DNA of 64,000 nucleotides, from positions 46,160 to 110,159 of the forward strand of contig NZ_PYGA01000023.1 in NCBI RefSeq assembly GCF_003014485.1, read 5' to 3'. Below are positions 6,240 to 56,615 of this stretch, one piece after another; within the stretch, counting starts at the first letter, position 1, and the number at the start of each line of letters is the position of its first letter. This DNA is from Murinocardiopsis flavida (GTDB lineage: Bacteria > Actinomycetota > Actinomycetes > Streptosporangiales > Streptosporangiaceae). Both the position numbers and the translations under genes were made by a program. A model generated the notes under the pieces. The model saw only the letters and a program-made list of their open reading frames with translations. It was not told where the DNA came from and searched no databases.

Positions 6240-6644
6240 GTGATCCTGAACATCGACCTCAACAGTGAGGTACCGATCTACCAGCAGCTGCGCGACCAGA
6301 TCGTGCACGCCGTCGCGTCGGGGGAACTGCGCGAGGGCAGCTCACTGCCTGCCACCCGTCAGCTCGGCGCCGACCTCGGTGTCAACTTCCACACCGTCAA
6401 CAAGGCCTACGACCTGCTGCGCCGCGAGGGCCTGCTGCGGCTCAACCGCAAGACCGGCGCCGTCATCCAGCGCGATCCCGCGTCCGGCCCGCCGCACCCG
6501 GCCTTCTACCCCGAATGGGAGGCACGCATGGGCGTGCTGCTCGCCGAGGCCATAGCCCACGGTGTCGAACCCGATCAGATCATCGAACGCTGCCGCGACC
6601 AGCTCGGATCGCTCCGCGGCGCCGAGAAGGGAAGAGGGACATGA
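6240..6644 (+). CDS. GntR family (YtrA-type) transcriptional regulator
   Basis: The N-terminal winged HTH reads (V)ILNIDLNSEVPIYQQLRDQIVHAVASGEL...LPATRQLGADLGVNFHTVNKAY. Start is probably GTG 6240, with AAGGGGG 5 nt upstream; the alternative ATG 6207 is in frame. Size is typical of YtrA. Confidence 0.7.
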   Translation: MILNIDLNSEVPIYQQLRDQIVHAVASGELREGSSLPATRQLGADLGVNFHTVNKAYDLLRREGLLRLNRKTGAVIQRDPASGPPHPAFYPEWEARMGVLLAEAIAHGVEPDQIIERCRDQLGSLRGAEKGRGT

Positions 6645-7825
6645 CCGCCGTGCTGCTGACCGTCCAACTGGTCATCGTCGTCACCGTCACCGCGCTCATG
6701 TGGCTGCTGCCGCGGACCAGCCGCGACACGCTGCCGTTCGGCGTCCGCGTCCCGCCCGGGCGGACCGCCGACCCCGCGATCACCGCCGCGACCCGCGGCT
6801 ACCGGGCCGCCGTCCTCTGCGTGAGCCTGCTGTCCGTCGTGGCGAGCGCCGTGCTGTGGCCGCTGATGTCGGCCGAGACCGCCATGAGCGGCGGGGCGGC
6901 GCTCCTGGTCGCCGGCGGTATCGGCGCCTACGCCGGCGCGCACCGCACCGTCCGGCGCGCCAAGGACCGCGAGCACTGGTACGCGGGGCTGCGCGAAGGC
7001 GTCGCCGTCGACACCGGGCTGCGCACCGACCCGGTACGCGTCCCATGGCTGTGGTCGCTACCGTCACTGGTGGTCATCGCCGTCGTCGCGATCACGGGCG
7101 CGGTGCTGTACCCGGGGCTGCCCGAGCGGCTGGTGATCTCGGTCCGCTACCACGAAGGCGGCACCGACTACTCGACCGCGGCGACGACTGTGGGGAGCGC
7201 GTTCGCCCTCGTCATCATCCAGGTGCTGGTCACAGCCCTCCTGCTGCTGATCCTGCGGTTCAGCGTGCGCGCCCGCGCCGACATCGACGCCGCCAACCCC
7301 CGCGAAAGCGCCGAACGCCACCGCCGCTTCCTGCGGATCTGGGCGTACTGCCTGCTGGCGACCGTCTTCGCGCTGAACGTGGCCTTCGGCGGGCTGGCGC
7401 TGATCATCTGGACGGGTTCCCTTGCCAGTGCGGGGCCCGCCGTTGCCGCCGTCGTCATCGTCCCGCTCCTCACCGGGGCCGCGCTGCTCACGGGCGCCGG
7501 GCTGCTCATCGGGCAGAGCGGCTGGCGGATGCGCGACGGAACCGGCGAGGACACCGGCTTCGTGCAACGCGACGACGACCGGTACTGGCACCTGGCCGGA
7601 ACGGTCTACATCAACCGCGCCGACCCCGCGATCCTGCTGCCCAAGCGCGCGGCCGGCCTCGGGTGGACGGTGAACCTGGGCCGCCCCGCCATCTGGCTCG
7701 TGCTCGGCCTGACCCTGGGCGCCCTCGCGGCCCTCGCCGTCGTCATCGTCTTCGGGCTGTCGGGAGACCTGGAGACCACCCAGTACGGCTGGCAGTTCGG
7801 CGCCGGGCCGCTCGGCCCCGAGTAG
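6641..7825 (+). CDS. polytopic integral membrane protein (DUF1648/SdpI-like candidate)
   Basis: ATG overlaps the GntR stop (ATGA) with a GAAGAGGGA SD. 394 aa with 8 or more hydrophobic segments. Coupling to a YtrA regulator is a common arrangement. Confidence 0.6.
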   Translation: MTAVLLTVQLVIVVTVTALMWLLPRTSRDTLPFGVRVPPGRTADPAITAATRGYRAAVLCVSLLSVVASAVLWPLMSAETAMSGGAALLVAGGIGAYAGAHRTVRRAKDREHWYAGLREGVAVDTGLRTDPVRVPWLWSLPSLVVIAVVAITGAVLYPGLPERLVISVRYHEGGTDYSTAATTVGSAFALVIIQVLVTALLLLILRFSVRARADIDAANPRESAERHRRFLRIWAYCLLATVFALNVAFGGLALIIWTGSLASAGPAVAAVVIVPLLTGAALLTGAGLLIGQSGWRMRDGTGEDTGFVQRDDDRYWHLAGTVYINRADPAILLPKRAAGLGWTVNLGRPAIWLVLGLTLGALAALAVVIVFGLSGDLETTQYGWQFGAGPLGPE

Positions 7826-8010
7826 CCCCGCCCGGCCACCGCCGACAGACCGCACCGACCACTGCTGACCGCGCCGCTCCGCGTTCATCGCACGGCGGGG
7901 GCCCGCGCCCATCCGGCCGGGCCCCCGCCGCCCCGCCCCATCCGTGCCGCCGCGCACCGGCGGAGCCATGCCCGCGCGACCCCACCGCCACCGCCATAAG
8001 GAGATCAGCC

Positions 8011-8991
8011 ATGCCCGCAGCACCGCCACCGGCCGGCACCGCCGTGCCCGGCTCCAGGATCGCCATCACCGTCTTCTGCCTGCTGTCCTTCGGTCTCGCG
8101 TGGGCCGCCGCCGCTCCACTGTGGATCAGCGGCGCGGGCCTGGCGCATCCGCAGGCCAAGCTGTTCATCATGGGGATGATGTTCTCCCCCGCCGTCGCCG
8201 CGTTCCTCGTCCTGCGGTTCGTCGCCCGCCCCGCGAGCATCCCGCGCGCGACCGGAATGACGCCGCTGCGCCCCGCACGGACCCTGATCCGCTACTGCGT
8301 CATCGGCTTCGCCATCCCGCCCCTGGTCATGCTGGTGGGGGTCCTGGCCGCGGCCGCCGCGGGCACGTACCGGCTCGACCTCGCCGACTTCTCCGCCTTC
8401 CGGGCGTTCGCCGCCCCGTTGGGGCTGGTCGGCGACGCGGACGGCACCGGGGTCCCCTTCGCCGCCCTCGGCCTCTTCGCCGCACTGCAACTGGTCGGCT
8501 GGGCGGCCGGCCTGCCCATGATGTTCGGCGAGGAATGGGGCTGGCGCGGCTACCTGCTGCCCGCCCTGCTTCACCTGGGCACCCTGCCCGCGCTGCTGCT
8601 CCACGGGGCCATCTGGGGCCTGTGGCACGCGCCGGTGATCCTGCTCGGGTACAACTTCGGCCGGCCCGACGCCGTCGGGCTCGCGGCGATGACCGCGTGG
8701 TGCGTGCTCATGGGCGTGATCCTCGGCTGGCTGCGGCTGGCCTCCGGCTCACTCTGGCCCGCCGTCATCGCCCACGGCGCGACCAACAGCGGGTCGGCCC
8801 TGTTCGTGGTCTTCGGCGACGCAAGCGCCGGCGCCGGCGACGCGGTGCCGATGGCGCTCTGGGTGGCGTCTGGGGCGGCGATGCTCCTGCTGATCACTCT
8901 CGGCGCCGCCCTGCCCCCGGTCCGCAACGCTGTGACGTCCCGCCTGCCGGGAGCACGGGGCGCACTCCGGCTCCGGCGCGCCGCCGATTAG
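8011..8991 (+). CDS. CPBP family intramembrane glutamic endopeptidase (CAAX protease / Abi-like)
   Basis: AAGGAGA SD 5 nt before the ATG. Motifs EEWGWRGYL, LWHAP and AHGATN match the EExxxR / FxxxH / HxxxN CPBP signature. Confidence 0.8.
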   Translation: MPAAPPPAGTAVPGSRIAITVFCLLSFGLAWAAAAPLWISGAGLAHPQAKLFIMGMMFSPAVAAFLVLRFVARPASIPRATGMTPLRPARTLIRYCVIGFAIPPLVMLVGVLAAAAAGTYRLDLADFSAFRAFAAPLGLVGDADGTGVPFAALGLFAALQLVGWAAGLPMMFGEEWGWRGYLLPALLHLGTLPALLLHGAIWGLWHAPVILLGYNFGRPDAVGLAAMTAWCVLMGVILGWLRLASGSLWPAVIAHGATNSGSALFVVFGDASAGAGDAVPMALWVASGAAMLLLITLGAALPPVRNAVTSRLPGARGALRLRRAAD

Positions 8992-9113
8992 CCGCCGGTT
9001 CTGCGCGGTCAAGATCGCCGCCGCCGTGCTGCTCGTGTTCTCCGTTCTGGCCACCCTCATCGTGCTGTGCCGGACGTACGGCCAGTAGCACGCCGGTGGG
9101 ACGTTCTCGGCGC

Positions 9114-9142
9114 CTGGAATCCCTTGTACGCAGGGATTCCAG
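9114..9142. promoter_or_regulatory. perfect 10-bp-stem inverted repeat ctggaatccc-N9-gggattccag between CPBP gene and SWIM gene
   Basis: Seen directly in the sequence. It may act as a terminator for the upstream gene or as an operator; there is no U-tract. Confidence 0.4.
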
Positions 9143-9163
9143 CCCGTTCGAGGCCCCGGGAAA

Positions 9164-10510
9164 ATGTCGTACCCGGCGCCTAGAGTCTCCTTTGTGAGCG
9201 AACGATGGAGCACCGACGACGTCCTTGCCCTCGCCCCCGATTCCGCCTCGGGCAAGGCGGCCGCGAAGGTCGCCAAACCGGCCCTGTGGCCCGTCAGCGG
9301 TTCACGTGCCGAACCCGGTCGCACGGACCCCGTGGTGTTCGGCGAATGCTCCGGCAGCGGCAGCGCCGTGTACCAGGTCTCGGTCGACCTCGCGGCCGCC
9401 GGGTCCCCCGGCCACCGCTGCACCTGCCCCAGCCGCAAGTTCCCGTGCAAGCACGTCCTCGGCCTGCTGCTGCTCTGGGCCCGCGGGCAGGACTCCGGGC
9501 CGTCCGACGGCCCCGAGTGGGTCGCCGAATGGCTCGCCCGGCGGCAGGCCACCGCCGAACGGGCCGGACGCGGTGCGGCGAAGTCCGCCGCACCGGCCGA
9601 CCCCGCCGCGGCGGCGCGGCGCGCACAGCGCCGCGAACGGCTCGTCGCCGACGGCCTCGCCGAGCTCGAACTGTGGTTGGCCGACCAGGCGGCCGCGGGC
9701 CTCGCGGGCCTGCCCCGCCTCGGGTACGCCCACTGGGACACCATGGCGAAACGGCTGGTCGACTGCCAGGCCGGCCGGGTCGCCGCACGGGTCAGGGAGC
9801 TGGGCGGCGCCACCGCCGAGCCCGGCTGGCCCCACCGGGTCCTCGCCGAGTTCGGCCTGCTGCGGCTGCTGTGCGAAGGCCACCGGCGCGAGTCCCTCCC
9901 CCCGCGGCTGCGCGCCGCGGTCCGGGCGCGCATCGGGTTCGCCGGCACGCCCGAACCCGCCCCGGCGCCCCGCGAGGTGTGGACGGTCCTCGGCCGCCAC
10001 GACTTCACCGCCGAGGAGCTCCGCGGCCGCCGCTTCTGGCTGCGCGGCCGCGACTCCGGCCGCACCGCGCACCTGCTCTCCTTCGCGCCGCAGGGCGGCA
10101 CCCCCGAGTCCCCCGTGCGGGTGGGCACCGAGGTCGACGCCGAACTGCTGTTCCACACCGACGACCACCGGGCGTCCGTCGCCGCGCGGCACGCCGAGCA
10201 CCCCGCGGTGCCGCCCGCGGGCGGCACCGTCGCCGACGCCCTGCGGTCGTACGCGGCGGCACTGGCCGACGACCCGTGGCTGGAGGCGTGGCCGGTCGTG
10301 CTCGACCGGGCGGCCCTCGCCCGCGACGGCGGCTGGTGGGCGGCCGACCCGTCCGGCGACGCCCTCCCGCTGCTGCCCGACTCCGTTCCGCCGTGGCGCC
10401 TCGCCGCCGTCACCGGCGGGGCACAGTCCACCCTCGCCGCCGAGCTCACCCCCGACGGCCTTCGCCCTCTGACCGTGTGGGACTCCGAGGGCCGCGCGGC
10501 GACCCTGTGA
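9164..10510 (+). CDS. SWIM zinc finger family protein
   Basis: 448 aa. The SWIM CxCx(n)CxH motif is HRCTCPSRKFPCKHVLGLLLLW. Alternative in-frame start GTG 9194. Confidence 0.75.
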   Translation: MSYPAPRVSFVSERWSTDDVLALAPDSASGKAAAKVAKPALWPVSGSRAEPGRTDPVVFGECSGSGSAVYQVSVDLAAAGSPGHRCTCPSRKFPCKHVLGLLLLWARGQDSGPSDGPEWVAEWLARRQATAERAGRGAAKSAAPADPAAAARRAQRRERLVADGLAELELWLADQAAAGLAGLPRLGYAHWDTMAKRLVDCQAGRVAARVRELGGATAEPGWPHRVLAEFGLLRLLCEGHRRESLPPRLRAAVRARIGFAGTPEPAPAPREVWTVLGRHDFTAEELRGRRFWLRGRDSGRTAHLLSFAPQGGTPESPVRVGTEVDAELLFHTDDHRASVAARHAEHPAVPPAGGTVADALRSYAAALADDPWLEAWPVVLDRAALARDGGWWAADPSGDALPLLPDSVPPWRLAAVTGGAQSTLAAELTPDGLRPLTVWDSEGRAATL

Positions 10511-10864
10511 ACCCGCCGCGCCCGCCCGTCCCCGTTCCCCCGGGTCCGCCGCCGGGCCCGACCACCGATCTCCCTGGAGGGGCAATGCCCAGCGCCGTCC
10601 GCCCGCAGCAGCACGACCCGGCCGCGGCCCATGAACCCGGCACGCACCGCGCCGCCGACCCCGCGCACCGCCTCCGGTGCCGCCTCTGCCTGATCCCGGG
10701 CCGCCCCCGCCGCACCGCTCCGGTTCCCGCCGCGCAACCCGGTCGGCCCGCCACCCGCTGACCCCGGCCCCCGGCCTGCCCGCACACGCAGCGGCCCGTG
10801 CGGCGGCCGCACGCCTCCCGTCCCCGGATCACCAGCCCCGATCCAGCGAAGGGCCTCCTTCCCC

Positions 10865-12385
10865 ATGAACCAGACCACCCCCGCTTCCGCATGGGCGGAC
10901 CTCGTGTCCACGGCGCTCGTCGGCACCGCACGGCGGGCCGTACCCGAGCCCGCCGGGCTGCCCTCTGTACCGGGCGCCGATCCCGCCCGCACCCTGCTCG
11001 ACCGCGCGGCGCAGGCGACCCTTCAGCGCCGGGCCGGCCTCGTCCCCCGCCGTGTCGCCCCGATCGACCCGGCGCCCGGCGAGTCGGCGCCCGTCGTGGG
11101 TGCCGCCGCGGCCCGGCGGCTGGCCACCATGCTCGGCGGCACCGGCGTCGATCTGCTGCCCGAGTGGCTGGCGCTGGCCGCCGACACCGGTCACCGGGTG
11201 CCGCCCGAGTCCCTGCCCGACCTGCTGGCGCGCGCCGAGCGCCACGCCGAACTCCGCGCGCCGCTGGCGCGGGTCGCCGGGGTCCGCGGCGCGTGGCTGG
11301 CCCGGCTGAACCCGGACTGGGCGTTCCTCCGCACCGGCTCCGCACCCTTCGACGCGGCGCGATGGGACCACGGCACCGCCGCGCAGCGCCGCGCGCACCT
11401 GGCGGTGCTGCGCGCACACGACCCCGCCGCCGCACGCGAACTCCTCGACGCGGCGTGGCCCACGGAGCGCGCCGGACAGCGCCGCCGACTGCTGGAGGTC
11501 ATGACCGACGGCCTGTCCGCCGACGACGAACCGCTCCTCGCCCGCGCCGCGGGCGACCGCAGCGCGAACGTCCGCGCCGAGGCGCTCGGCCTGCTCGCCC
11601 GGCTCCCCGGTTCGCGGCACGGCGCCGCGGTGGCCGAGCAGGCGCGGCTGCTGGTCCGGCCCGGCGACGGCGCCCCGTTGGACGTCGGGCGGCCCGAACC
11701 GGCGCCCGAAACCGCGCCCCTTCTCGACATCACGGCGGGCGGCGACTCCTCCGGCTCCCCTGTGTCCGCGGACCGGCGGCGGCGCGACCTGTACTGGGCG
11801 GTCGTCGTGCAGACCCCGCTGCCGGTCTGGCCCGGCCACCTGGGGCTCGACCCCGGGGCCATCGGCGAAGCCGCGCGCACCGCCGGAATGGGGGACCTGC
11901 TCGACGCCCTGGCCGTCGCGGCGGTCCTCCAGCGCGACCCCGTCTGGGCCCGCGCCCTCATCGGCCCGGTCGCCCGGCGGCACGGTTTCGACGAGGACAA
12001 CGGCATCGACCCCCGCGCCCTGCTCCGCAACGGCCGGGGCGGCAGCACCGACCTCGCCGCGGCGCTGCTGAACGTGCTCCCCGAGGGGGAGCGGTGCGCG
12101 GCGGTGCAACGGTGGGCCCTCGCCGCCGGTGCCGTGCCGCCGGGATGGCTGCTCCGCCGCCCGTGGACCGACGAGTTCAGCGTGTTCGTCGTCGACGCTC
12201 TCCGCGGCGCCCGCCCCCGCAACGGGACCACCGCCTGGTACACCGCCACCCTGCTCTGCGACGCCGCCGCCCGGTTCATGCCCCCCGAGTTCCACGATCG
12301 GCTGCCGTGCGACGAGGGCGAGCACTTCGCCGTCCTCGCCGACCGCCTCCGCCTCCGTTCCACCATGCACAAGGAGCTGCTGTGA
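10865..12385 (+). CDS. DUF5691 domain protein (uncharacterised, actinobacterial)
   Basis: 506 aa Ala/Leu/Arg-rich helical-repeat protein. Its stop overlaps the start of the AAA gene (GTGA). The family call comes from remembered architecture rather than a search. Confidence 0.6.
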   Translation: MNQTTPASAWADLVSTALVGTARRAVPEPAGLPSVPGADPARTLLDRAAQATLQRRAGLVPRRVAPIDPAPGESAPVVGAAAARRLATMLGGTGVDLLPEWLALAADTGHRVPPESLPDLLARAERHAELRAPLARVAGVRGAWLARLNPDWAFLRTGSAPFDAARWDHGTAAQRRAHLAVLRAHDPAAARELLDAAWPTERAGQRRRLLEVMTDGLSADDEPLLARAAGDRSANVRAEALGLLARLPGSRHGAAVAEQARLLVRPGDGAPLDVGRPEPAPETAPLLDITAGGDSSGSPVSADRRRRDLYWAVVVQTPLPVWPGHLGLDPGAIGEAARTAGMGDLLDALAVAAVLQRDPVWARALIGPVARRHGFDEDNGIDPRALLRNGRGGSTDLAAALLNVLPEGERCAAVQRWALAAGAVPPGWLLRRPWTDEFSVFVVDALRGARPRNGTTAWYTATLLCDAAARFMPPEFHDRLPCDEGEHFAVLADRLRLRSTMHKELL

Positions 12386-13497
12386 CCGCCACCGCCCCCG
12401 CACCCACTCCGGCCGCCGAGGCCCTGCGCCCGCACGCGGAGCAGAGCCACGCCGCCGAACTCGCTGCGCTCGCCGCCGCCGACGACCGCCCGCGCCCGCC
12501 CGGCTGGAAGCTGTCGCCGTGGGCGGTGACCGAGTACATCCAGGGCACCACCCTGCCCGACGGCACGGAGATCACCCCGAAGTACATCGGGGCCCGGTCG
12601 GTCGTGGAGGTCGCCGTGGCCACGCTCGCCACCGACCGCGCGCTGCTGCTGCTCGGCGTCCCCGGTACCGCGAAGACCTGGCTGTCGGAGCACCTGGCCG
12701 CCGCCATCTCCGGCGACTCCACGCTGCTCGTGCAGGGCACGGCCGGCACGGCGGAGGAGGCCATCCGGTACGGCTGGAACTACGCCCGGCTGCTCGCCGA
12801 GGGCCCGTCGGAGGCGGCGATGGTGCCGAGCCCGGTCATGACCGCCATGGCCGACGGCCGCCTGGCCCGCGTCGAGGAGCTCACCCGGATCCCCTCCGAC
12901 GTCCAGGACGCCCTCATCACGGTGCTGTCGGAGAAGACCCTGCCGGTGCCCGAACTCGCCATGGAGGTGCAGGCGCAGCGCGGGTTCAACATCATCGCCA
13001 CGGCGAACGACCGCGACCGCGGCGTCAACGACCTGTCCAGCGCGCTGCGCCGCCGCTTCAACACCGTGGTGCTCCCGGTCCCGCAGACCGCCGATGACGA
13101 GGTCGACATCGTCACCCGCAGGGTCGCCCAACTCGGCAGCTCCCTCGAACTACCCGAGGTGCCGACCGGCCTCGCCGAGATCCGCCGCATCGTCACCGTG
13201 TTCCGGGAGCTGCGCAGCGGCACCACCGAGGACGGCCGGACCAAGGTGAAGTCGCCGAGCGGGACCCTGAGCACCGCCGAGGCGATCTCGGTGGTGACCA
13301 ACGGCATCGCGCTCGCAGCCTACTTCGGCGACGGCACGCTGCGGCCGTTCGACGTCGCCGCCGGCATCCGCGGCGCCGTCGTGCAGGACCCCGTGTCCGA
13401 CGAGGTCGTCTGGCGCGAGTACCTGGAGACCGTCGTGCGCGAGCGCGACGGCTGGGACGACCTCTACCGCGCCTGCCGCGAAACGGAGCGCCGATGA
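12382..13497 (+). CDS. AAA+ ATPase, MoxR/AAA_5 class
   Basis: GTG start with an AAGGAG SD. Walker A LLLGVPGTAKT, Walker B/sensor LARVEELTRIPSD and the MoxR-like core IIATANDRDRG...LRRRF are present. Confidence 0.85.
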   Translation: MTATAPAPTPAAEALRPHAEQSHAAELAALAAADDRPRPPGWKLSPWAVTEYIQGTTLPDGTEITPKYIGARSVVEVAVATLATDRALLLLGVPGTAKTWLSEHLAAAISGDSTLLVQGTAGTAEEAIRYGWNYARLLAEGPSEAAMVPSPVMTAMADGRLARVEELTRIPSDVQDALITVLSEKTLPVPELAMEVQAQRGFNIIATANDRDRGVNDLSSALRRRFNTVVLPVPQTADDEVDIVTRRVAQLGSSLELPEVPTGLAEIRRIVTVFRELRSGTTEDGRTKVKSPSGTLSTAEAISVVTNGIALAAYFGDGTLRPFDVAAGIRGAVVQDPVSDEVVWREYLETVVRERDGWDDLYRACRETERR

Positions 13498-15746
13498 CCC
13501 TGGTCGACCCCGAACGCGTCCACGTCCTGGGGATACGGCACCACGGCCCCGGCTCGGCACGGGCGGTGCGCGCCGCTCTCGACACCATCCGGCCCGAAAC
13601 CGTGCTCATCGAGGGCCCGCCCGAAGCCGACGCGCTCACCGGCCTCGCCCCCGACCTCGAACCCCCGGTCGCGCTGCTCGCCTACCGGGCCGACTCCCCG
13701 GCGCAGGCGGCGTTCTGGCCGTTCGCGGCGTTCTCCCCCGAGTGGCAGGCGCTGCGCTGGGCCGCCGACAACGGTGCCGAGGCCGACTTCTGCGACCTCC
13801 CCGCGGCGCACACCCTCGCCGAGGAGGAACCGGCTGACAGCGGCCCCACCACCGGCCCCGAGGACGAGGACGACCCCGAGCGGCGCACGCGCGTCGACCC
13901 GCTCGGCGTGCTCGCCGAGGCCGCCGGGTTCGACGACCCCGAGCGGTGGTGGGAGGACGTCGTGGAGCAGCGCGACGGCGCGGGCCCGTCGCCCTTCCCC
14001 GCCATCCTCGACGCCATGAGCGCGGTGCGCGGCGAACTGGCGCCCGAACCCTGGGACGACCGCGAGGCCAGGCGCGAGGCGCACATGCGCCAGACCCTGC
14101 GCCGCGCCATGCGCGCCGGGAGCGGCCGCATCGCCGTGGTGTGCGGCGCGTGGCACGCGCCCGCGCTGCGCGACCTCCCACCGGCCGGGCACGACACCGC
14201 CCTGCTCAAGGGCCTGCCCAAGGTCAAGACCGCCACCACGTGGATCCCGTGGAGCCACGGGCGGCTCGCCGCGGGCAGCGGGTACCGGGCGGGGGTGCGC
14301 TCGCCCGGCTGGTACCACCACCTGTTCACGGCGCCCGACCGGCCGGTCGAGCGCTGGCTCACCGAGGCGGCGCGCCGCTTGCGCGGCGAGGACCAGCCGG
14401 TTTCGTCGGCGCACGTCATCGAGGCGGTGCGGCTCACAACGAGCCTCGCCGTGCTGCGCGGCCGCCCGCTGGCGGGGCTCGCCGAGGTGGCCGAGGCGAC
14501 CACCGCCGTCCTGTGCGAGGGCTCGGAGTCGCGCGCCGCCCTGGTCCACCGGTCCATGGCCATCGGTGAACGCCTGGGGGCGGTGCCCGAGAGCACGCCC
14601 ATGGTCCCGTTGCAGCGCGACCTCACCGCGCAGCAGCGCTCCCTGCGGCTCAAACCCGAGGCGCTGCGCCGCGACCTCGTCCTCGACCTGCGCAAGGACC
14701 TCGACCGCCGGCGCAGCGTCCTGCTGCACCGGCTCGCGCTGCTCGGCGTCGACTGGGGGACGCCGGAAAGCGAGGACAACCGTTCGCGCGGCACCTTCCG
14801 CGAGACGTGGTCGCTGTGCTGGGAGCCCGGCCTCGACATCACCCTCATCGAGGCGAGCGCGTGGGGCACGACGGTCGACGGCGCCGCGACCGCCCGCGCC
14901 GCCGACCGCGCGGCGCACGCCCCTCTGCCCGGCCTGACCGCCCTCACCGAGCAGTGCCTGCTCGCTGAGCTCCACGACGCCGTCCCGGCGGTGCTCGACC
15001 GCGTCGCGGCGCGCGCCGCCGAAGGCGCCGACATCGCGCACCTCATGGCGGCGCTGCCGCCGCTCGCCCGCTCCTCCCGTTACGGCAGCGTGCGGCGGCT
15101 GGACTCCGACGCGCTGCGGCGGGTGGCGGTGGAGCTGCTGCGCAGGGTCTGCGCGGGGCTCGCGCCCGCGGTCGGCGCACTGGGCGACGACGCCGCGGCC
15201 GCCATGGTCGCCGCGGTCGACGGGGTGCACACCGCTGCCGTGCAGCTGGGCGGCGCGGCCGAGGCCGAATGGCTCGACACACTCGAACGGCTCGCCGAGC
15301 GCGGCTCCGTCCCCGGGAAACTGGCGGGCCGCGTCCACCGGCTGCTGCGCGACACCGGCCGCCTCTCGGCGCCGACCCTGGCGCTGCGCCTGAGCCGCGC
15401 GACGTCGGCGGCCGTGCCGCCCGGCCGGTCCGCGGCGTGGATCGAGGGGTTCCTGTCGGGCAGCGGCCTGCTGCTGGTCCACGACACCGACCTCCTCACC
15501 CTGATCGACCGCTGGCTGTCCGGGCTGGCCCCGCAGGCGTTCACCGACGTCCTTCCGCTGCTGCGCCGCTCCTTCGGCGCCTTCCCGCAGCCCGAGCGCC
15601 GCGCCATCGGCGAGCAGGCGGCCCGCCTCGGCGACGGTGCGGCGCCGGAGCGGCCCGCCGAGCCCATCGACGCCGAGCGCGCGGCACCGGCCCTCGCCGC
15701 GGCCGCCGCCCTGCTCGGAGTGGGCGGACCGGCGGCACCGGGGTGA
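13494..15746 (+). CDS. DUF5682 family protein (uncharacterised)
   Basis: 750 aa. Its ATG overlaps the stop of the AAA gene (ATGA). The frame stays open with coherent codon usage. The family call comes from remembered synteny. Confidence 0.6.
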   Translation: MTLVDPERVHVLGIRHHGPGSARAVRAALDTIRPETVLIEGPPEADALTGLAPDLEPPVALLAYRADSPAQAAFWPFAAFSPEWQALRWAADNGAEADFCDLPAAHTLAEEEPADSGPTTGPEDEDDPERRTRVDPLGVLAEAAGFDDPERWWEDVVEQRDGAGPSPFPAILDAMSAVRGELAPEPWDDREARREAHMRQTLRRAMRAGSGRIAVVCGAWHAPALRDLPPAGHDTALLKGLPKVKTATTWIPWSHGRLAAGSGYRAGVRSPGWYHHLFTAPDRPVERWLTEAARRLRGEDQPVSSAHVIEAVRLTTSLAVLRGRPLAGLAEVAEATTAVLCEGSESRAALVHRSMAIGERLGAVPESTPMVPLQRDLTAQQRSLRLKPEALRRDLVLDLRKDLDRRRSVLLHRLALLGVDWGTPESEDNRSRGTFRETWSLCWEPGLDITLIEASAWGTTVDGAATARAADRAAHAPLPGLTALTEQCLLAELHDAVPAVLDRVAARAAEGADIAHLMAALPPLARSSRYGSVRRLDSDALRRVAVELLRRVCAGLAPAVGALGDDAAAAMVAAVDGVHTAAVQLGGAAEAEWLDTLERLAERGSVPGKLAGRVHRLLRDTGRLSAPTLALRLSRATSAAVPPGRSAAWIEGFLSGSGLLLVHDTDLLTLIDRWLSGLAPQAFTDVLPLLRRSFGAFPQPERRAIGEQAARLGDGAAPERPAEPIDAERAAPALAAAAALLGVGGPAAPG

Positions 15747-15831
15747 CCCGGCGCCCGGCCGGCCCGCGGCGCCCCGCCGCACCGGCCCCCTTCAGACGTC
15801 ACCCGGCACCGCGCAGCAGGAGGAGCACACG

Positions 15832-17049
15832 ATGACGACGGCGACGCACGACATCCCCGCAGCGGCGGCCCCCGAGGAGCGGCTGCGCCGGTGGCGGCTG
15901 GTCCTCGGCGCCGCCGCCGAGGCGGACTGCGCGGGCCTGGCCGGTGCCGACGCCGGCATGGACGCCGCCCTCGCCGCCCTCTACGACAACGGCGGGGGCG
16001 GGGGCGCCGACGACACCGGCGGGCCGCGCAGCGCCGGGCTGGGCGCGTCGGCGCCCAGGGTCGCCCGCTGGCTCGGCGACATCCGCACGTACTTCCCGTC
16101 GAGCGTGGTGCGGGTGATGCAGGCCGACGCGGTCGAGCGCCTCGGCCTGGACCGGCTGCTCCTCGAACCGGAGATGCTCGACGCCGTCGAACCCGACGTC
16201 CACCTCGTCGGCACCCTGCTGTCGCTGAACCAGGTCATGCCGCAGCGGGCCCGCGAGTCGGCGCGGGCCGTCGTCCGCGCGGTGGTCCGGGACCTGGAGC
16301 GGCGCCTCGCCCAGCGCACCCGCTCGGTGGTGCGCGGCGCGCTCGACCGGTCGGCGCGCACCCACCGCCCGCGCCGGGCCGCCGACATCGACTGGAACGG
16401 CACCATCCGCCGCAACCTCCAGCACTACCTGCCCGAGCACGGCACGATCGTGCCGCAGAACCTGGTCGGGTACGGGCGGCGCACGCACGGTGTGCAGCGG
16501 CACGTCACGCTCGCCATCGACCAGAGCGGGTCCATGGCCGAGTCGGTGGTGTACGCGAGCGTGTTCGGCGCCGTCCTCGGCTCGATGCGCACCCTGCGGA
16601 CGTCGCTCGTCGTCTTCGACACCGCAGTCGTCGACCTCACCGAGGAGCTGAGCGACCCGGTGGAGGTGCTGTTCGGCACCCAACTGGGCGGCGGGACCGA
16701 CATCAACCGCGCCATCGCCTACTGCCAGGGCCTCATCACCCGCCCGGCCGACTCCGTGTTCGTCCTGATCAGCGACTTGTACGAGGGCGGGATCCGCGAC
16801 GAGATGCTGCAACGGGTCGCGGCCATGACAGCGGCCGGCGTGCAGGTGGTGGTGCTCCTGGCGCTGTCGGACGAGGGGGCGCCGTCCTACGACCGCGACA
16901 ATGCAGCGGCGCTGGCCGCGATGGGCGTCCCGGCGTTCGCGTGCACGCCCGACGCGTTCCCCGAGCTGATGGCCGCGGCGATCCAGGGCCATTCGATGAC
17001 CGCGTGGGCCGAGCGGCGGCAGGACCACGGCGCCGACGGCGACCGGTAG
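15832..17049 (+). CDS. VWA (von Willebrand factor A) domain protein
   Basis: AGGAGG SD. The VWA MIDAS-like motif is LAIDQSGSM...GGGTDINRAI. It is the last gene of the SWIM-MoxR cluster. Confidence 0.8.
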   Translation: MTTATHDIPAAAAPEERLRRWRLVLGAAAEADCAGLAGADAGMDAALAALYDNGGGGGADDTGGPRSAGLGASAPRVARWLGDIRTYFPSSVVRVMQADAVERLGLDRLLLEPEMLDAVEPDVHLVGTLLSLNQVMPQRARESARAVVRAVVRDLERRLAQRTRSVVRGALDRSARTHRPRRAADIDWNGTIRRNLQHYLPEHGTIVPQNLVGYGRRTHGVQRHVTLAIDQSGSMAESVVYASVFGAVLGSMRTLRTSLVVFDTAVVDLTEELSDPVEVLFGTQLGGGTDINRAIAYCQGLITRPADSVFVLISDLYEGGIRDEMLQRVAAMTAAGVQVVVLLALSDEGAPSYDRDNAAALAAMGVPAFACTPDAFPELMAAAIQGHSMTAWAERRQDHGADGDR

Positions 17050-17142
17050 CGCCACCGTCGGGGACCCCCCGTGCGGCACCGCTACCCTGGCCCTTCAGGA
17101 CGCCCGCCCCGACCGCGCGGCACAACACCAGGAGACGCCTCG

Positions 17143-17763
17143 ATGAACCGCTTCACCACGACCGTGCTGTCAGGACTGCTCGGCGCCGCCCTGCTCACGG
17201 CGACATCGTGCGGTGGCGGGGCGTCCGACGACGCGGCGGCGGAGTCCGAAGGCGTCACCGGGGCCACCCTGAAGACCAGCGAGGGCGACATCAAGGTCAC
17301 CCTGTTCCCGGACACGGCGCCCGAGACCGTTGCGAACTTCGCAGGGCTGGCAGAGGGTGGCAAGGCCGAGAACCCGAAGACCGGGGCGAAGCGGTTCTAC
17401 GACGACACCCTGTTCCACCGCGTCATCCCCGGCTTCATGGTGCAGGGCGGCGACCCGCTCGGCAACGGGACGGGCGGCCCCGGCTACACCTTCGAGGACG
17501 AGATCGACCCCGACCTCTCCTTCGACGAGCCCGGCAAGCTGGCCATGGCCAACTCCGGCAAGCACACCAACGGCTCGCAGTTCTTCGTGACCACCGCCCC
17601 GGCGCCGCACATCGACGGGAAGCACACCATCTTCGGCGAGGTCGCCGACAAGAAGAGCCAGCAGGTCGCCGACGCCATCTCCAAGGTCGAGACCGGCCCG
17701 GACGACCGCCCGGCCGAGGACGTCGTCCTGGAGTCGATCACCATCAACCGAGCGGACGGCTGA
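17143..17763 (+). CDS. cyclophilin-type peptidyl-prolyl cis-trans isomerase, secreted lipoprotein
   Basis: AGGAGA SD. Lipobox LTATSC. Cyclophilin motifs FHRVIPGFMVQGGDP and GSQFFVT are present. Confidence 0.85.
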   Translation: MNRFTTTVLSGLLGAALLTATSCGGGASDDAAAESEGVTGATLKTSEGDIKVTLFPDTAPETVANFAGLAEGGKAENPKTGAKRFYDDTLFHRVIPGFMVQGGDPLGNGTGGPGYTFEDEIDPDLSFDEPGKLAMANSGKHTNGSQFFVTTAPAPHIDGKHTIFGEVADKKSQQVADAISKVETGPDDRPAEDVVLESITINRADG

Positions 17764-17799
17764 CGCCGCGCACTCCGCGCACCGCCGAGGAGGCCGAGA

Positions 17800-18585
17800 A
17801 TGGGTTCGGACAACGGAACGGTCGCCGTCGTCACGGGCGGTGCGCGGGGGATCGGGCGCGGCATCGCCCTCGTCCTCGGTGCGACCGGGGCGACGGTCTA
17901 CGTCACCGACCGCGAGAGCAGGGCGCACACGGTGCAGGACCTGCCCGGGACCGTTGAGGACACCGCCGAACAGGTCACGGACCGGGGCGGGCGCGGGATC
18001 GCCGTCCCGCTCGACCACACGGACGACCGCGCCGTCGCCGCGCTGTTCGCCCGGGTGCGCGCGGAGCACGGCGGCCTGGACCTCCTCGTCGCGAACGCCA
18101 CCGCGGGGAACGCGCTGCCGTTCCACTCCGGCGCGTTCTGGACCCTGCCGCTCGCGCACTGGCACAACATGATCGACTGCGGTGTGCGCGGCCACCTGGT
18201 CGCGGCGCACTGCGCGGCGCCGCTGCTCATCGAGCACGGGCGCGGGCTCCTGGTCCTCACCGGGTACGACGACCCCGGGGCCGAGGTGATCGGCGGGCAC
18301 GTCTTCTACGACCTGGCGATGACCGCCACCAGCCGGCTCGCGCGCACGCTCGCCCACGACCTGCGGCCGCACGGGGTCACGGCGCTCGCCGTCTCCCCCG
18401 GGATCACCCGCACGGAGGCGATCGCGGCGGCGGTCCCGGACATGCCGCCGGGCACCGACTCCGTGGAGTTCGCCGGCCGCGCCGTCAGGGCGCTGCTGGC
18501 CGACCCGGACGTCGCCCGCCACGCGGGCCGCACGATCGCGGTGGCCGACCTCGCCGCCGAGTACGGGTTCACCGACATCGAGTGA
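17800..18585 (+). CDS. SDR family oxidoreductase
   Basis: GAGGAGG SD. Contains VAVVTGGARGIGRGIA and the S...YxxxK region. Confidence 0.85.
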   Translation: MGSDNGTVAVVTGGARGIGRGIALVLGATGATVYVTDRESRAHTVQDLPGTVEDTAEQVTDRGGRGIAVPLDHTDDRAVAALFARVRAEHGGLDLLVANATAGNALPFHSGAFWTLPLAHWHNMIDCGVRGHLVAAHCAAPLLIEHGRGLLVLTGYDDPGAEVIGGHVFYDLAMTATSRLARTLAHDLRPHGVTALAVSPGITRTEAIAAAVPDMPPGTDSVEFAGRAVRALLADPDVARHAGRTIAVADLAAEYGFTDIE

Positions 18586-23104: not shown

Positions 23105-26038
23105 CTACTCCGCCGCCACGCACTTCCCCGTCAACGGGATCCGCTGGATGCGGTCGTCATCGGCGGCGGTCATCGCGCCGAGCGACCGGAGCGCCTCGAA
23201 CTGCTCCTGCGCATCCGCGCGGCGACCCATCGCGAGGTAGCACGTGCCCAAGCGGTCCCGAAGCTCCAGTTCCAGCCGGACGGCGGTCTGGTCGGAGATG
23301 ACGGCAAGAGCCTGATGGAAGAGCGCGATCGCGGTGTGCGGTTCGCCCAGTTCCTGCATCGCGGCGGCCAGCCGGGTCAGACTGCCGACGCGCAGCGTGA
23401 CGTCCGCGACCTGATCGGCCAGGTCGACCGCCTGCCGCAGCGCGGGCGCGGCCTCGGCCGGGCGACCGAGCTGGAGCAGAATGCTGCCGACGCTGCACAG
23501 CGCCCGCCCCACCATCGACGGGCTGCCGATCGCCTCTCCGAGCGCGCGGGAGCGGGTGAAGCAGTCGAGGGCCTCCTCGGGGCGGCCCTGGAGCAGCAGG
23601 ATGTAGCCGCGGCCGGACGTCGCCCGCTCGACGAGCCAGTCGTCGCCGAGCTCCTCGGCCAGTTCGATCACCGCGGCCAAGTCGTCCAGCACGCCGCCGT
23701 GCCGCCCTGAGGCCGCTCCGGAGATCACCAGGCCGCCGCGGGCACGGGCCTCGACCCGCCGGTCGCCCGCCGACCGGCCGCCTTCGAGGGCTGCGCTGAA
23801 CCACGTGCGGGCCTGGTCGTACCGGCCCTGCATGCCATAGGCGAAGCCCAGGCAGAAGTACAGCGAAGGGGCCATCCGGGGGTCGGCGGCATCGCCGACC
23901 CGCGACAGTGCGATCTCGACAGCGGCACGGGACTCGTGGATCCTGCCCCTGCGCACGAGGAAGTCGACCACGGCCTCGGCGATCCAGCACGCGTGGCCCA
24001 CCTGCCCGATGGCTGCGGCGTGGCCGACCACATCGGCGAAGTCGCCGGCCTTGTCGAGCCAGGCCGAGGCGTCCTCCCAACCGCGGAACGGCGCATCCCC
24101 CGGCTCCGGCCCGGTCGGGAAGCTCGCGGCGCCCCACTCGCTCGCGATCCGGCCGGCCGCGATGTAGAGCCGGAACACCCGTGCGGTGACCATTGCGCCC
24201 GCCTCCGCGGGCTCCTCGGCGGCCAGCCGGCGCGCGAACACCGCGACAAGGTCGTGCAGCCGGTACCGGTCGGCGGCCGGTTGCTGCACGAGGCTCGCGT
24301 CCACCAGTCGCTCCAAGGAGCGGTCGGCGTCGCGCGGCGGGCAGTCGAGCATCGCCGCCATCGTGAGCCGGTCGAGCTCCGGCGTGGGCGACAGGCCCAG
24401 CACGCGAAACGCCCGCTGATCGGCGTCGGGAAGCTGGTCGTAGGAGGCCCGGAACGCGGCCTCGACGCTGCGGTCCCCCGCGGTCAGGCCGCCGAGCCGT
24501 CCCTCGTCGTCGGCGAGCCGCGCCACCAGGTCCTCGAACGTCCATGCCGGACGGGTCTGGAGGCGCGCTCCGGCGATGCACAGTGCGAGCGGCAGCCGCC
24601 CGCACAGCCGGGCCAGCGCACGCACCGCGCCCGGCTCGCCGCCCGCCCGCGACGCACCGGCGATGCGGTTCAGCAGCGCCGCGGCAGCCTCGATGTGGAG
24701 CGGTTCCAACGAGACCCGGCGCTCCGCGTCCAGACCCGCCAGCCGCCGGCGGCTGGTCACCAGGACGCTGCTGCCCGCCCCGGCCGGCAGCAGCGGGCGC
24801 ACCTGCTCGGCGCTCCACGCGTCGTCGAGCACCAGCACCAGGCGGAGCGAGGCGGTGGCGGCGCGCCACGACGCCGCGAGTTCGTCGAGGTCGTCCGGGG
24901 TACCGCTGTCGTCCACGCCGACCGCCCGCAGCAGCCGACGCAGCACGCGCTCCACGGCGGGTGCCCTGCGCCCGCTGTGCCCGTGCAGATCCACGAACAG
25001 GCATCCGTCCGGGCAGTCGGCACGGAGTGTTCGCGCGGCGTTCACCGCCAGCGCGGTCTTCCCGGCTCCCGCCACCCCGTCGACCGCCGCGGTGGTCACC
25101 GCGTCGGCGGCGATCGGCGCTGCGAGCAGCGCCAGTTCCCGTTCCCGGCCGATCAGCTCGCCGATGCCGACCGGCAACTCGTCGCGCGGCCGGTCGGCCG
25201 GAACGGGGGCCGGGGGCGCACCGGCCGCCTGACTCCTGTCGGCGAGACCGAGCGACGCGTCGTCCCCGCGCAGCACCGCCTGGTGGACGCTCTGCATCTC
25301 CGCGCCGGGCTCCACCCCCAGGTCCTCGACGAGGCGGTCGCGCAGCCGGGGGAACACCCGCAGCGCGTCGGCCTGCTGCCCGCCGCCGTAACGGGCACGC
25401 ACCAGGAGGGCGGCGAGCCCTTCGGCGTGCGGGTACGCCTCGATCCACTCGGGCAGCTCGTCAACCACCTCGTCGTAGCGTCCCAGGCGGACCTGCGCGT
25501 CGAGCTTGTCCTGGAGCAGCGCGACCCGCCGCTCCGCCAGCCGGCGCCGCTCCCCTTCCGCGAACGGCCCCGGGAGTCCCGCCAGCGGCTCGCCGTCGAA
25601 CAGCGCGAGCGCGCGGGTGTACGCGCCCACCGCCGCGGCCAGGTCACCGCTCTGCCGAGCACCGCCGGCCTCGGCCGCGAGCTCGTTCAGGCGCACCGTG
25701 TCGAGCAGGGCGCCGCTGCCGACGAAGCGGTACCCGCTCCGGTCGCTGACGATCACCGACTTCGCGTCCACGCCGTTGGCCTGCAAGCACCGCCGCAGGC
25801 GGAACACGTAGCCCGGCATGTTCCGGACACCGGTGCTCGGCGGGTCCTGGCCCCACACCCGGTCGAGCAGCTGCTCCTGGCTGACGGTGACATCGGAGCG
25901 CAGCACCAGGGCCGCCAACACGGCCTGCTGGCGGACGGGGCCCACATCCAGCTCCTCGGCACCACACCAGACCCGCATCGGGCCGAGCACGGCGAACCGA
26001 ATATGCGTGGGAGAAACCGGTGTAATCCGTTCGGACAC
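23105..26038 (-). CDS. AfsR/SARP family transcriptional regulator (BTAD + NB-ARC + TPR)
   Basis: 977 aa. N-terminal OmpR-type wHTH and BTAD (FAVLGPMRVW...), Walker A GVAGAGKTALA, and C-terminal TPRs. Confidence 0.85.
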   Translation of the reverse strand: MSERITPVSPTHIRFAVLGPMRVWCGAEELDVGPVRQQAVLAALVLRSDVTVSQEQLLDRVWGQDPPSTGVRNMPGYVFRLRRCLQANGVDAKSVIVSDRSGYRFVGSGALLDTVRLNELAAEAGGARQSGDLAAAVGAYTRALALFDGEPLAGLPGPFAEGERRRLAERRVALLQDKLDAQVRLGRYDEVVDELPEWIEAYPHAEGLAALLVRARYGGGQQADALRVFPRLRDRLVEDLGVEPGAEMQSVHQAVLRGDDASLGLADRSQAAGAPPAPVPADRPRDELPVGIGELIGRERELALLAAPIAADAVTTAAVDGVAGAGKTALAVNAARTLRADCPDGCLFVDLHGHSGRRAPAVERVLRRLLRAVGVDDSGTPDDLDELAASWRAATASLRLVLVLDDAWSAEQVRPLLPAGAGSSVLVTSRRRLAGLDAERRVSLEPLHIEAAAALLNRIAGASRAGGEPGAVRALARLCGRLPLALCIAGARLQTRPAWTFEDLVARLADDEGRLGGLTAGDRSVEAAFRASYDQLPDADQRAFRVLGLSPTPELDRLTMAAMLDCPPRDADRSLERLVDASLVQQPAADRYRLHDLVAVFARRLAAEEPAEAGAMVTARVFRLYIAAGRIASEWGAASFPTGPEPGDAPFRGWEDASAWLDKAGDFADVVGHAAAIGQVGHACWIAEAVVDFLVRRGRIHESRAAVEIALSRVGDAADPRMAPSLYFCLGFAYGMQGRYDQARTWFSAALEGGRSAGDRRVEARARGGLVISGAASGRHGGVLDDLAAVIELAEELGDDWLVERATSGRGYILLLQGRPEEALDCFTRSRALGEAIGSPSMVGRALCSVGSILLQLGRPAEAAPALRQAVDLADQVADVTLRVGSLTRLAAAMQELGEPHTAIALFHQALAVISDQTAVRLELELRDRLGTCYLAMGRRADAQEQFEALRSLGAMTAADDDRIQRIPLTGKCVAAE

Positions 26039-40723: not shown

Positions 40724-40730
40724 CGCAGAC

Positions 40731-56596: not shown

Positions 56597-56615
56597 GCGC
56601 GAAGGGACCGTCGCG

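Follow-up and report, generated by a model that had tools for sequence, protein, structure and literature searches.

The five genes on the plus strand of the Murinocardiopsis flavida window, i.e. the whole stretch of 64,000 nucleotides that was analysed, form an operon that almost certainly represents a YehL-type MoxR-VWA module. Its product is a soluble, cytoplasmic, ATP-driven five-subunit AAA+ system, and transmembrane segments were predicted in none of the five subunits. What appears to be new here is a domain resembling the TIKI/TraB/ChaN/erythromycin esterase proteins in DUF5682, the largest subunit. As the best explanation, which we hold with a little less than even confidence, the module would be a widespread chromosomal YehL-type five-subunit AAA+ system, in which the motor gates or loads a DUF5682 hydrolase and the SWIM and DUF5691 proteins serve as an adaptor. 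The genes and motifs are located in the window as follows, with the reading frames supported by GC3 given in brackets.

9164-10510, plus strand: SWIM zinc-finger protein, 448 aa from the ATG at 9164 (frame 2; GC3, Pfam SWIM)
9419-9454, plus strand: SWIM finger C86-x-C88-x6-C95-x-H97 (CTCPSRKFPCKH), read from the sequence
10511-10864, no strand: intergenic gap of about 354-355 bp, peculiar to M. flavida, with an unsupported 58-aa ORF
10865-12385, plus strand: DUF5691 protein, 506 aa (frame 2; Pfam DUF5691, 358.6 bits)
12382-13497, plus strand: MoxR AAA+ ATPase, very probably of the YehL subfamily, 371 aa (frame 1; AAA_5, 127.7 bits)
12655-12678, plus strand: Walker A GVPGTAKT in the ATPase gene
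12865-12882, plus strand: Walker B variant ARVEEL in the ATPase gene; EE replaces DE, as in YehL
13494-15746, plus strand: DUF5682 protein (frame 3; Pfam DUF5682, 899.8 bits, full length, profile positions 1-727)
13494-14267, plus strand: N-terminal alpha/beta domain of DUF5682/YehM, aa 1-258, putative TIKI/TraB/ChaN/Ere-like hydrolase fold
13530-13544, plus strand: G13-x-x-H16-H17, DUF5682 N-domain motif
13611-13613, plus strand: E40, DUF5682 N-domain motif
14073-14078, plus strand: R194-E195, DUF5682 N-domain motif
14145-14156, plus strand: G218-x-x-H221, DUF5682 N-domain motif
14268-15746, plus strand: C-terminal part of DUF5682/YehM, aa 259-750, mostly alpha-solenoid with a small beta insertion
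15832-17049, plus strand: CoxE-like VWA protein, YehP orthologue, 405 aa (frame 1; VWA_CoxE, 183.5 bits)
16519-16533, plus strand: MIDAS D230-Q-S-G-S in the VWA gene, completed by GGGTD and SDLYEG

The positions of these five same-strand genes, as given in an earlier note on this DNA, were borne out by GC3, which amounts to 0.9-0.99 in all of the called frames, and by an HMM search against Pfam, in which each protein matched its expected family, so that the five domain calls of that note (SWIM, DUF5691, MoxR ATPase, DUF5682 and VWA) hold. Both of the start/stop overlaps that it described are present in the sequence, namely GTGA between the DUF5691 and ATPase genes (12382-12385) and ATGA between the ATPase and DUF5682 genes (13494-13497). 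The VWA gene indeed has an AGGAGG of its own at 15819-15824, and its ATG is located 7 nt past this motif and 85 bp past the DUF5682 stop. For the SWIM gene, a GTG at 9194 may represent an alternative start, because the alignments of the orthologues begin at about residue 8-12. The ORF in the gap between the SWIM and DUF5691 genes, which had already been distrusted, was rejected as a gene, since tblastn in 80 related loci found no homologue (all E > 0.9); its coordinates and length needed correction, from 10575-10761 and 61 aa to 10585-10761 and 58 aa. An Rfam scan of positions 8000-18500 at E ≤ 1, gap included, revealed no RNA element, and a promoter and terminator consensus scan gave no match.

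In 80 loci fetched by DUF5682 alone, the ATPase was found 77 times, the VWA gene 78 times, DUF5691 75 times and SWIM 74 times, some of the misses lying at contig ends (e.g. L003, L017, L034, L048), and all five genes occur together in about 75 of the 80 fetched genomes. This association is far above chance, and the pairing of the MoxR ATPase with a VWA gene claimed from the single sequence holds up. The gene set is syntenic among relatives and also across phyla: the gene order is the same in Leptolyngbya, Chloroflexia, Gemmatimonadota, Rhizobium, Deinococcus and Hymenobacter, the module is present in most of the actinomycete genera sampled, and overall its conservation spans at least seven bacterial phyla. 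In the cyanobacterial loci L037 and L057, DUF5682 is unlinked. No sixth conserved gene was found in the flanks, which differ by lineage; in the window the module is surrounded by ordinary genes (DUF5808, CPBP protease, cyclophilin, SDR, AIM24 and LysE), none of which is common to the 80 loci. The median identity decreases from the ATPase (78%) and the VWA protein (72%) to DUF5682 (54%), SWIM (43%) and finally DUF5691 (36%), the fastest-evolving subunit, and this gradient fits a conserved motor that works with variable adaptors.

Regarding the motor, 61 ATPase sequences including YehL share Walker A, the EE-type Walker B, ATAN and RRRF, in line with an AAA_5-type domain that has both Walker motifs, sensor 1 and an Arg finger, and the predicted nucleotide-binding and hydrolysis motifs of the M. 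flavida protein are intact. The MIDAS residues (DQSGS, GGGTD, SDLYEG) are likewise conserved in 55 VWA sequences including YehP; the VWA gene is located two genes downstream of the ATPase gene. Compared to the E. coli proteins, the ATPase shares 41% identity with YehL over 357 aa, the VWA protein 38% with YehP over 370 aa, and DUF5682 26% with YehM over its full length (E 6e-37). Judged from these alignments, E. coli yehL-yehM-yehP are the orthologues of the ATPase-DUF5682-VWA core. A search of NCBIfam with the ATPase returned only distant ATPase families far under their cutoffs (GvpN with 28 bits vs 267, MadB with 44 vs 475). YehL constitutes one of seven MoxR subfamilies and is still uncharacterised (PMC3893208). 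The earlier statement that this architecture is without a described function therefore stands, as no characterised pathway emerged from Pfam, NCBIfam, PADLOC, PDB sequences or the literature, but it has to be refined, because the core of the module already has a name in E. coli.

The likeness to the E. coli yeh operon includes the same order of the AAA_5 ATPase, DUF5682 and VWA_CoxE genes, a SWIM-finger protein in the cluster, the EE-type Walker B, the MIDAS and the N-terminal motifs of DUF5682, and both systems are equally uncharacterised. However, the E. coli SWIM protein YehQ (614 aa) is encoded downstream of the VWA gene, whereas the M. flavida SWIM gene lies upstream, and in the comparison of the actinobacterial SWIM profile with YehQ the finger alone aligned, without significance. 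Furthermore, profile search and hhalign detected no DUF5691 in E. coli, in contrast to M. flavida, while the WGR and DUF4132 genes upstream in E. coli (yehF, yehI) have no homologue in the window or in any of the 80 loci. The possibility that DUF5691 is YehQ or DUF4132 in diverged form was considered and rejected, since its profile matched none of the E. coli Yeh proteins and hhalign against YehQ and YehI revealed no relation. The predicted orthology is thus limited to yehL, yehM and yehP and does not extend to the whole of yehLMPQ; with no detectable DUF5691 in E. coli and YehQ sharing the finger alone, the adaptor half of the module is not universal.

The adaptor half itself consists of a linked pair. 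The SWIM match in Pfam covers aa 70-103 (31.1 bits vs a cutoff of 19.6), and the CxCxnCxH signature of the putative zinc site is complete (C86-T-C88-x6-C95-K-H97). The finger is nearly invariant among 62 orthologues, and C[ST]CPSR[KV]FPCKH is also found in the SWIM proteins of Deinococcus, Hymenobacter and Rhizobium. A profile of the 62 orthologues gave full-length matches in Deinococcus (E 9e-110) and Hymenobacter (E 6e-136), by which the protein is assigned to a specific orthologous family beyond the generic SWIM class. DUF5691, which matches its Pfam profile over the full length (positions 1-491), is an all-alpha HEAT/ARM-like solenoid. phmmer searches against PDB sequences found no relative with a solved structure for the SWIM protein, and the same holds for DUF5691. 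In other bacteria the two genes are separated by a short gap, abut, overlap by 4 bp (L018, L030) or are fused, as in P0174 (a single 886-aa protein) and in Hymenobacter (1009 aa). The earlier proposal of two transcription units split at the gap is not supported, since SWIM and DUF5691 behave as one unit in this comparison. Instead, the module divides naturally after DUF5691 and before the ATPase, since in every Streptomyces locus, and likewise in Kitasatospora and Streptantibioticus, the SWIM-DUF5691 pair has a divergent orientation.

The N-terminal domain of DUF5682 is, with good but not full confidence, TIKI/TraB-like, an assignment that we base on the fold and on the pattern of motifs, the support from sequence being weak and not significant by standard sequence tools. 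The alpha/beta fold of the superfamily with its parallel beta-sheet core is present, and fold-level matches include structures of the TraB family, ChaN, the Ere-like 2rad and HopBA1. G13xxH16(H17) follows strand 9-14, E40 follows strand 36-39, R194-E195 is located inside helix 189-207 and G218xxH221 follows strand 213-218. These motifs are invariant in DUF5682 sequences of four phyla, E. coli YehM included, and their order and spacing match those of the E. coli TraB protein YbaP (G38xxH41, E67, R228N229, G249xxH252). The paired GxxH, the Glu and the Arg also fit the signature of the TIKI family, i.e. 2His/2Glu plus a conserved basic residue (PMC6254334). An hhalign comparison of the domain with YbaP, for which 82 diverse representatives were used, resulted in E 0.01 with a probability of 4% and E 0.002 with a probability of 13%; the score of 28.5 that goes with E 0.002 exceeded those of all 40 segment-shuffled controls (19.3 ± 1.3, maximum 24.6). 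An earlier hhalign run with a YbaP alignment of low diversity was not significant. In Pfam at E ≤ 10 the isolated domain matched DUF5682 alone, a model that begins at residue 25, so that the first GxxH motif is located outside of it. A profile of the domain yielded only chance hits among PDB sequences, phmmer of DUF5682 found no relative with a solved structure there, and Foldseek of DUF5682 against the PDB gave no hit at E ≤ 0.001, with helical repeats dominating. In contrast to the TIKI/TraB/PrgY/GumN, ChaN and erythromycin esterase superfamily, the domain is fused to a solenoid of about 490 aa and encoded in an AAA+ operon. Among the papers listed in a literature search, none described such a context or linked MoxR with TraB or TIKI. 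The searchable literature contained no experimental datum on any subunit, no mention of DUF5682 or DUF5691 was found, and the yeh genes turned up only in lists of genes, in a study of H-NS and in introductions on MoxR.

In the characterised chaperone pairs RavA-ViaA, CoxD-CoxE, NorQ-NorD and CbbQ-CbbO, too, an AAA+ ATPase of the MoxR class has a VWA protein with a MIDAS as its partner, and the VWA protein studied here belongs to the CoxE-like Pfam family. The expected action of such pairs is ATP-driven remodelling (PMC3893208). In the mechanism that we propose, the YehL-type MoxR ring would couple through the MIDAS of the VWA protein and, driven by ATP, remodel a complex for which the solenoids serve as scaffolds. 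This remodelling would activate the TIKI/TraB-like domain of DUF5682 or deliver substrate to it, and the domain could act as a protease or esterase via its His/Glu pair and the Arg, while the fast-evolving SWIM-DUF5691 pair would be the adaptor that recognises a target protein or nucleic acid. We put this ATP-gated hydrolase mechanism forward tentatively, as an inferred scheme that is somewhat less likely than not. Against it, TIKI-fold proteins also include non-enzymes. Similar to this scheme, eukaryotic midasin (Rea1) combines ATPase modules of the AAA_5 (dynein-related) type with a MIDAS and draws on ATP to extract a protein from a large assembly. Midasin, however, is a single giant polypeptide that acts on pre-60S ribosomes, and nothing here ties the M. 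flavida module to ribosomes.

Alternatively, the module could be a classical MoxR-VWA maturation chaperone for the insertion of a metal or cofactor into, or the assembly of, an unlinked client enzyme. In that case DUF5682 and DUF5691 would play the part of passive scaffolds, and the TIKI-like domain, like ChaN, would bind a ligand, metal or haem instead of acting as a hydrolase. We consider this somewhat unlikely. CoxDEF, NorQD and CbbQO adjoin their client genes, whereas no candidate client gene is conserved beside the module, the flanks of which vary by lineage, and a linkage to client enzyme or XdhC-like genes as in CoxD-CoxE-CoxF was not seen among the neighbours in the window. Compared to the characterised pairs, the module also comprises three additional dedicated subunits (SWIM, DUF5691 and DUF5682), and the invariance of GxxH, Glu and Arg from E. 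coli to Actinomycetota would suggest a catalytic site or one for a precise ligand, and not a scaffold.

Of the two functions named in the earlier note, chaperone or metal insertion and conflict or defence, the latter is the less likely one. An NTP-dependent conflict or anti-phage system with a SWIM-DUF5691 sensor and a TIKI-like effector would follow the logic of the ternary MoxR-vWA systems that Kaur et al. 2020 describe (PMC7159879) and of the actinobacterial Esr pathway (PMC13622651), in which a MoxR-vWA pair, together with variable proteins, forms an NTP-dependent signalling core. Such cores are known from predicted conflict systems and by now also from experimentally supported ones. The sensor-like SWIM and DUF5691 proteins evolve fast (36-43% identity), TIKI-fold proteins include toxins or effectors such as RRSP and HopBA1, and E. 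coli yehLM is silenced by H-NS/StpA (PMC3686432). We nevertheless regard such a role as improbable. The module lacks a beta-propeller, VMAP, kinase/phosphatase, FHA, effector-associated and known effector domains; bpMoxR scored 23.5 bits on the ATPase, under its cutoff of 27; and a PADLOC-DB 2.0 scan of all subunits gave only a weak IetA match in the P-loop region of the ATPase (E 0.004, 14.6 bits). In addition, only 37 of the 72,556 plasmid records contain DUF5682, most of these being megaplasmids or chromids, and among 50,697 phage records a single one does. The yehLMPQ genes are present as a single copy in 5353 of the 5426 complete E. coli genomes (98.7%), and ordinary genes adjoin the module in the window. 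This distribution, together with the PADLOC result, argues for a chromosomal function and not for a mobile defence island, and a housekeeping or stress role is more likely than mobile defence. Least probable of all is a remodelling of DNA or the nucleoid, in which the SWIM finger would bind DNA and the AAA+ motor would act on nucleoprotein during repair or in the organisation of the chromosome.

E. coli has only two MoxR ATPases, of which YehL is one, and the yeh operon has been a y-gene cluster of unknown function ever since the MoxR subfamily classification, which in the form cited by Wong et al. 2014 is reportedly that of Snider & Houry 2006. The five-gene form described here represents a fuller version of the E. 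coli yehLMP machine and is found in at least seven phyla. With a probable catalytic domain of the TIKI/TraB type, what was a group of DUFs becomes a hypothesis that can be tested and that names the residues to mutate and the output to seek, i.e. cleavage or de-esterification. It is possible, although we rate it as doubtful, that the module stands for an unrecognised class of AAA+-regulated hydrolases, in which a MoxR ring and a MIDAS adaptor gate a protease or esterase of the TIKI/TraB family that is directed to its target by a SWIM-HEAT adaptor. If true, this would add to the E. coli core genome an ATP-dependent processing machine of bacteria unrelated to Clp, Lon, FtsH and the proteasome, would extend MoxR-VWA biology beyond cofactor insertion and would provide a mechanistic context for the poorly understood bacterial TraB/GumN family.

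Third-position GC (GC3) placed the five genes of the module on the + strand of the window, whose G+C content is about 74%, exactly where the earlier note had positioned them, and a Pfam search agreed with all of its domain calls (SWIM, DUF5691, MoxR ATPase, DUF5682 and VWA). The genes, all supported by GC3, are:

9164-10510 (+), SWIM gene; Pfam SWIM, 31.1 bits
10865-12385 (+), DUF5691 gene; Pfam DUF5691, 358.6 bits
12382-13497 (+), AAA_5 ATPase gene with a GTG start, GTGA overlap with the DUF5691 gene; AAA_5, 127.7 bits
13494-15746 (+), DUF5682 gene, ATGA overlap with the ATPase gene; Pfam DUF5682, 899.8 bits
15832-17049 (+), VWA_CoxE gene, ATG 7 nt 3' of AGGAGG; VWA_CoxE, 183.5 bits

The DUF5691 and DUF5682 proteins correspond to CLV63_12358 and CLV63_12360, respectively (100% identity each). 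Since none of the five proteins contains a transmembrane-like segment, the products are predicted to be soluble and cytoplasmic.

The products of yehL-yehM-yehP-yehQ of E. coli K-12 are AAA_5, DUF5682, VWA_CoxE and SWIM proteins, respectively. YehL is 41% identical to the window ATPase, YehM 26% to the DUF5682 protein over its full length (E 6e-37) and YehP 38% to the VWA protein, and the three genes follow the same order as in the window. The SWIM protein YehQ, which is encoded downstream, has only the finger in common with its window counterpart and, unlike in the window module, no DUF5691 is detectable in E. coli. YehL is the namesake of one of seven MoxR subfamilies and one of the two MoxR proteins of E. 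coli (Wong et al. 2014, PMC3893208). We conclude that the module is real and that the earlier note read it essentially correctly. It does have a name, as the YehL-type MoxR-VWA system in a fuller, five-gene form, of which the window copy is an ordinary orthologue. In the searchable literature, "DUF5682" and "DUF5691" occur in no paper, and the yeh genes appear without functional data, only in lists and in one hns/stpA study, in which yehL and yehM were up-regulated in the mutants (PMC3686432). The region 5' of yehL (L001, the E. coli locus, 6475-14290) contains yehF (WGR), the pseudogene yehH, yehI (1210 aa, DUF4132) and yehK; homologues of these were found neither in the window nor in 80 related loci, so that their link to yehL would be enterobacteria-specific, if functional at all.

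These 80 loci were retained from a genome-collection scan seeded with two DUF5682 peptides, which yielded at least 600 stretches, 597 of them confirmed among the matches listed, and partner genes were sought by tblastn. Synteny in relatives, which had been named as a check, was evident: 74 to 78 of the 80 loci contained each partner (SWIM 74, DUF5691 75, ATPase 77, VWA 78), some of the absences falling at contig ends, and the five-gene order was kept across phyla, i.e. in Leptolyngbya (L038), a Chloroflexia MAG (L077), a Gemmatimonadota MAG (L053) and Acidimicrobiales (L061) and, according to RefSeq annotation, in Rhizobium, Deinococcus and Hymenobacter. The SWIM finger C[ST]CPSR[KV]FPCKH is near-identical in these phyla. 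Median identities to the window proteins are graded (ATPase 78%, VWA 72%, DUF5682 54%, SWIM 43%, DUF5691 36%), as would fit a conserved motor whose adaptor subunits evolve faster. In 61 ATPase sequences, YehL among them, Walker A (GxPGTAK[TS]), a Glu-Glu Walker B (hRhEE), which is unusual, sensor-1 ATAN and RRRF are all conserved. The MIDAS of the window VWA protein is complete (DQSGS, GGGTD, SDLYEG) and is likewise conserved in YehP. On this evidence the ATPase and the VWA protein both appear competent for catalysis and function.

Some loci deviate in detail. In a Nostocaceae MAG (L037, 275-2539) and an Acaryochloris MAG (L057, 9992-12250) DUF5682 shares 47% identity with its window counterpart and the other four genes are absent within the fetched flanks, whereas in the cyanobacterium Leptolyngbya (L038) all five occur together; the partners may be located elsewhere in the two MAGs' genomes. 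In Rhizobium sp. Kim5 (pRetKim5c; L083, 3009-4504) the annotated 325-aa "hypothetical protein" 5' of DUF5691 represents no more than the C-terminal portion of a SWIM protein, and the finger YKCSCPSRKFPCKH is encoded in unannotated DNA directly 5' of it; the gene call is truncated, or else there is a frameshift. Small extra ORFs without a Pfam match lie between the ATPase and DUF5682 genes on plasmids of Hymenobacter sp. HDW8 (L084, 6368-6979, 203 aa), where the module adjoins PDDEXK nuclease and recombinase genes, and Deinococcus taeanensis (L085, 6765-7001, 78 aa).

No sixth conserved gene flanks the module among the 80 loci; the commonest flank clusters after the module genes reach at most 27 loci, apparently of the Streptomyces group, and the window neighbours (DUF5808 protein, CPBP protease, cyclophilin, SDR, AIM24) recur in none. 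An 809-aa ORF at 6562-8991 (+) was rejected as a high-GC artefact, as GC3 resolves two genes:

6515-7825 (+), DUF5808 membrane protein, GC3 frame 2
~7950-8991 (+), CPBP/Rce1-like intramembrane protease, GC3 frame 1

Further along the window, 38621-45878 (+) holds two genes 7 bp apart. The product of the first (700 aa) has an SPFH/Band 7 domain at its N terminus; that of the second (1715 aa) contains DUF3686 ("ATPase involved in DNA repair", 725 bits), DUF7902 and, at the C terminus, an AAA domain. This large uncharacterised pair lies on the margin of a stretch with lower GC (0.67-0.69, 34-40 kb). Large regulators with NB-ARC and TPR domains are encoded at 23105-26038 (-) and 56466-58793 (+), the former being AfsR/SARP-like because of its additional Trans_reg_C and BTAD domains. 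ORFs well supported by GC3 at 53058-55313 (-, 751 aa) and 32495-34156 (-, 553 aa) match no Pfam family at E <= 1e-5.

The 354-bp gap between the SWIM and DUF5691 genes, which the earlier note had taken to suggest two transcription units, contains neither an Rfam match nor a promoter or terminator consensus. Its small ORF, previously given as 61 aa (10575-10761), actually spans 10585-10761 (58 aa) and was rightly distrusted, since no counterpart exists among the 80 loci. Elsewhere, the two genes abut or share a 4-bp overlap (L018, L030) or form one polypeptide, as in the fusion protein P0174 (886 aa) and in a Hymenobacter protein (1009 aa). The gap is thus a local peculiarity of this genome and no evidence for two units there. 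The comparative break lies instead between DUF5691 and the ATPase, as the SWIM-DUF5691 pair is transcribed divergently from ATPase-DUF5682-VWA in all Streptomyces loci, Kitasatospora and Streptantibioticus. A cyclophilin-type PPIase gene at 17071-17763 (+) starts 21 bp past the VWA stop and may be co-transcribed with the module here; it lies beside the module in none of the 80 related loci.

The structure model of DUF5682 (77-sequence alignment; pLDDT 84, pTM 0.78) shows an alpha/beta domain at the N terminus (about 258 residues) and then a long solenoid. Four motifs are invariant in all sequences examined, including YehM:

motif 1, G13-x-x-H16-H17, after strand 1
motif 2, E40, after strand 2
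motif 3, R194-E195, within a helix
motif 4, G218-x-x-H221, after a further strand

The signature of the TIKI superfamily, which includes ChaN, HopBA1 and Bcr135, comprises 2His/2Glu catalytic residues at strand ends and a conserved basic residue (Jang et al. 2018, PMC6254334), and is present in DUF5682. In E. coli YbaP (TraB/GumN), the corresponding G38xxH41, E67, R228-N229 and G249xxH252 are spaced almost identically. The Pfam DUF5682 model starts at residue 25 and thus leaves out the first GxxH motif. Sequence-level tests of the assignment are weak: the isolated N-domain matched nothing in Pfam other than DUF5682, its profile matched no PDB sequence, and Foldseek returned for DUF5682 only a marginal match, apparently to a Tetrahymena TraB-family chain (judged by chain length). 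In hhalign, a 177-sequence N-domain profile against 82 diverse TraB representatives gave E 0.01, with all four motifs in register in the relaxed alignment, and E 0.002 (score 28.5) with another match-column rule; controls scored 19.3 +/- 1.3 (40 segment-shuffled, maximum 24.6) and 12.9 (reversed). We consider homology of the N-domain to the TIKI/TraB family probable, not proven.

The module is a conserved five-component cytoplasmic set of an AAA+ ATPase, a MIDAS, two solenoid scaffolds and a SWIM finger, with a probable TIKI/TraB-like active site in DUF5682. Judging from MoxR-VWA systems in general (PMC3893208) and from TIKI-family enzymology (PMC6254334), the MoxR ring, coupled via the VWA MIDAS, would remodel a complex assembled on the solenoids, and this would activate the DUF5682 hydrolase or load substrate into it, with SWIM-DUF5691 picking the target. 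A possible, if doubtful, alternative is a maturation chaperone of the usual type whose client is unlinked, DUF5682 then being a scaffold that binds a ligand. A conflict system is improbable: a PADLOC scan of the module gave no meaningful match, the bpMoxR model of ternary conflict systems scored under threshold, 5353 of 5426 complete E. coli genomes carry one chromosomal copy of yehLMPQ, and DUF5682 is rare on plasmids (37 of 72,556 records, mostly megaplasmids or chromids) and phages (1 of 50,697 records). This distribution, together with the profile results, is not the pattern typical of a defence island. The sole phage record (MT835988.1; match at 10584-12758 with 28% identity and 96% coverage) is a 14-kb contig without annotation, derived from metagenomes of human faeces, and may be a misclassified bacterial fragment. 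A DNA-directed remodeller is very unlikely.

What matters is the family more than this copy: found very widely and part of the E. coli core genome, the YehL-type module has been functionally blank, and the probable active site of DUF5682 now gives it a specific catalytic hypothesis.
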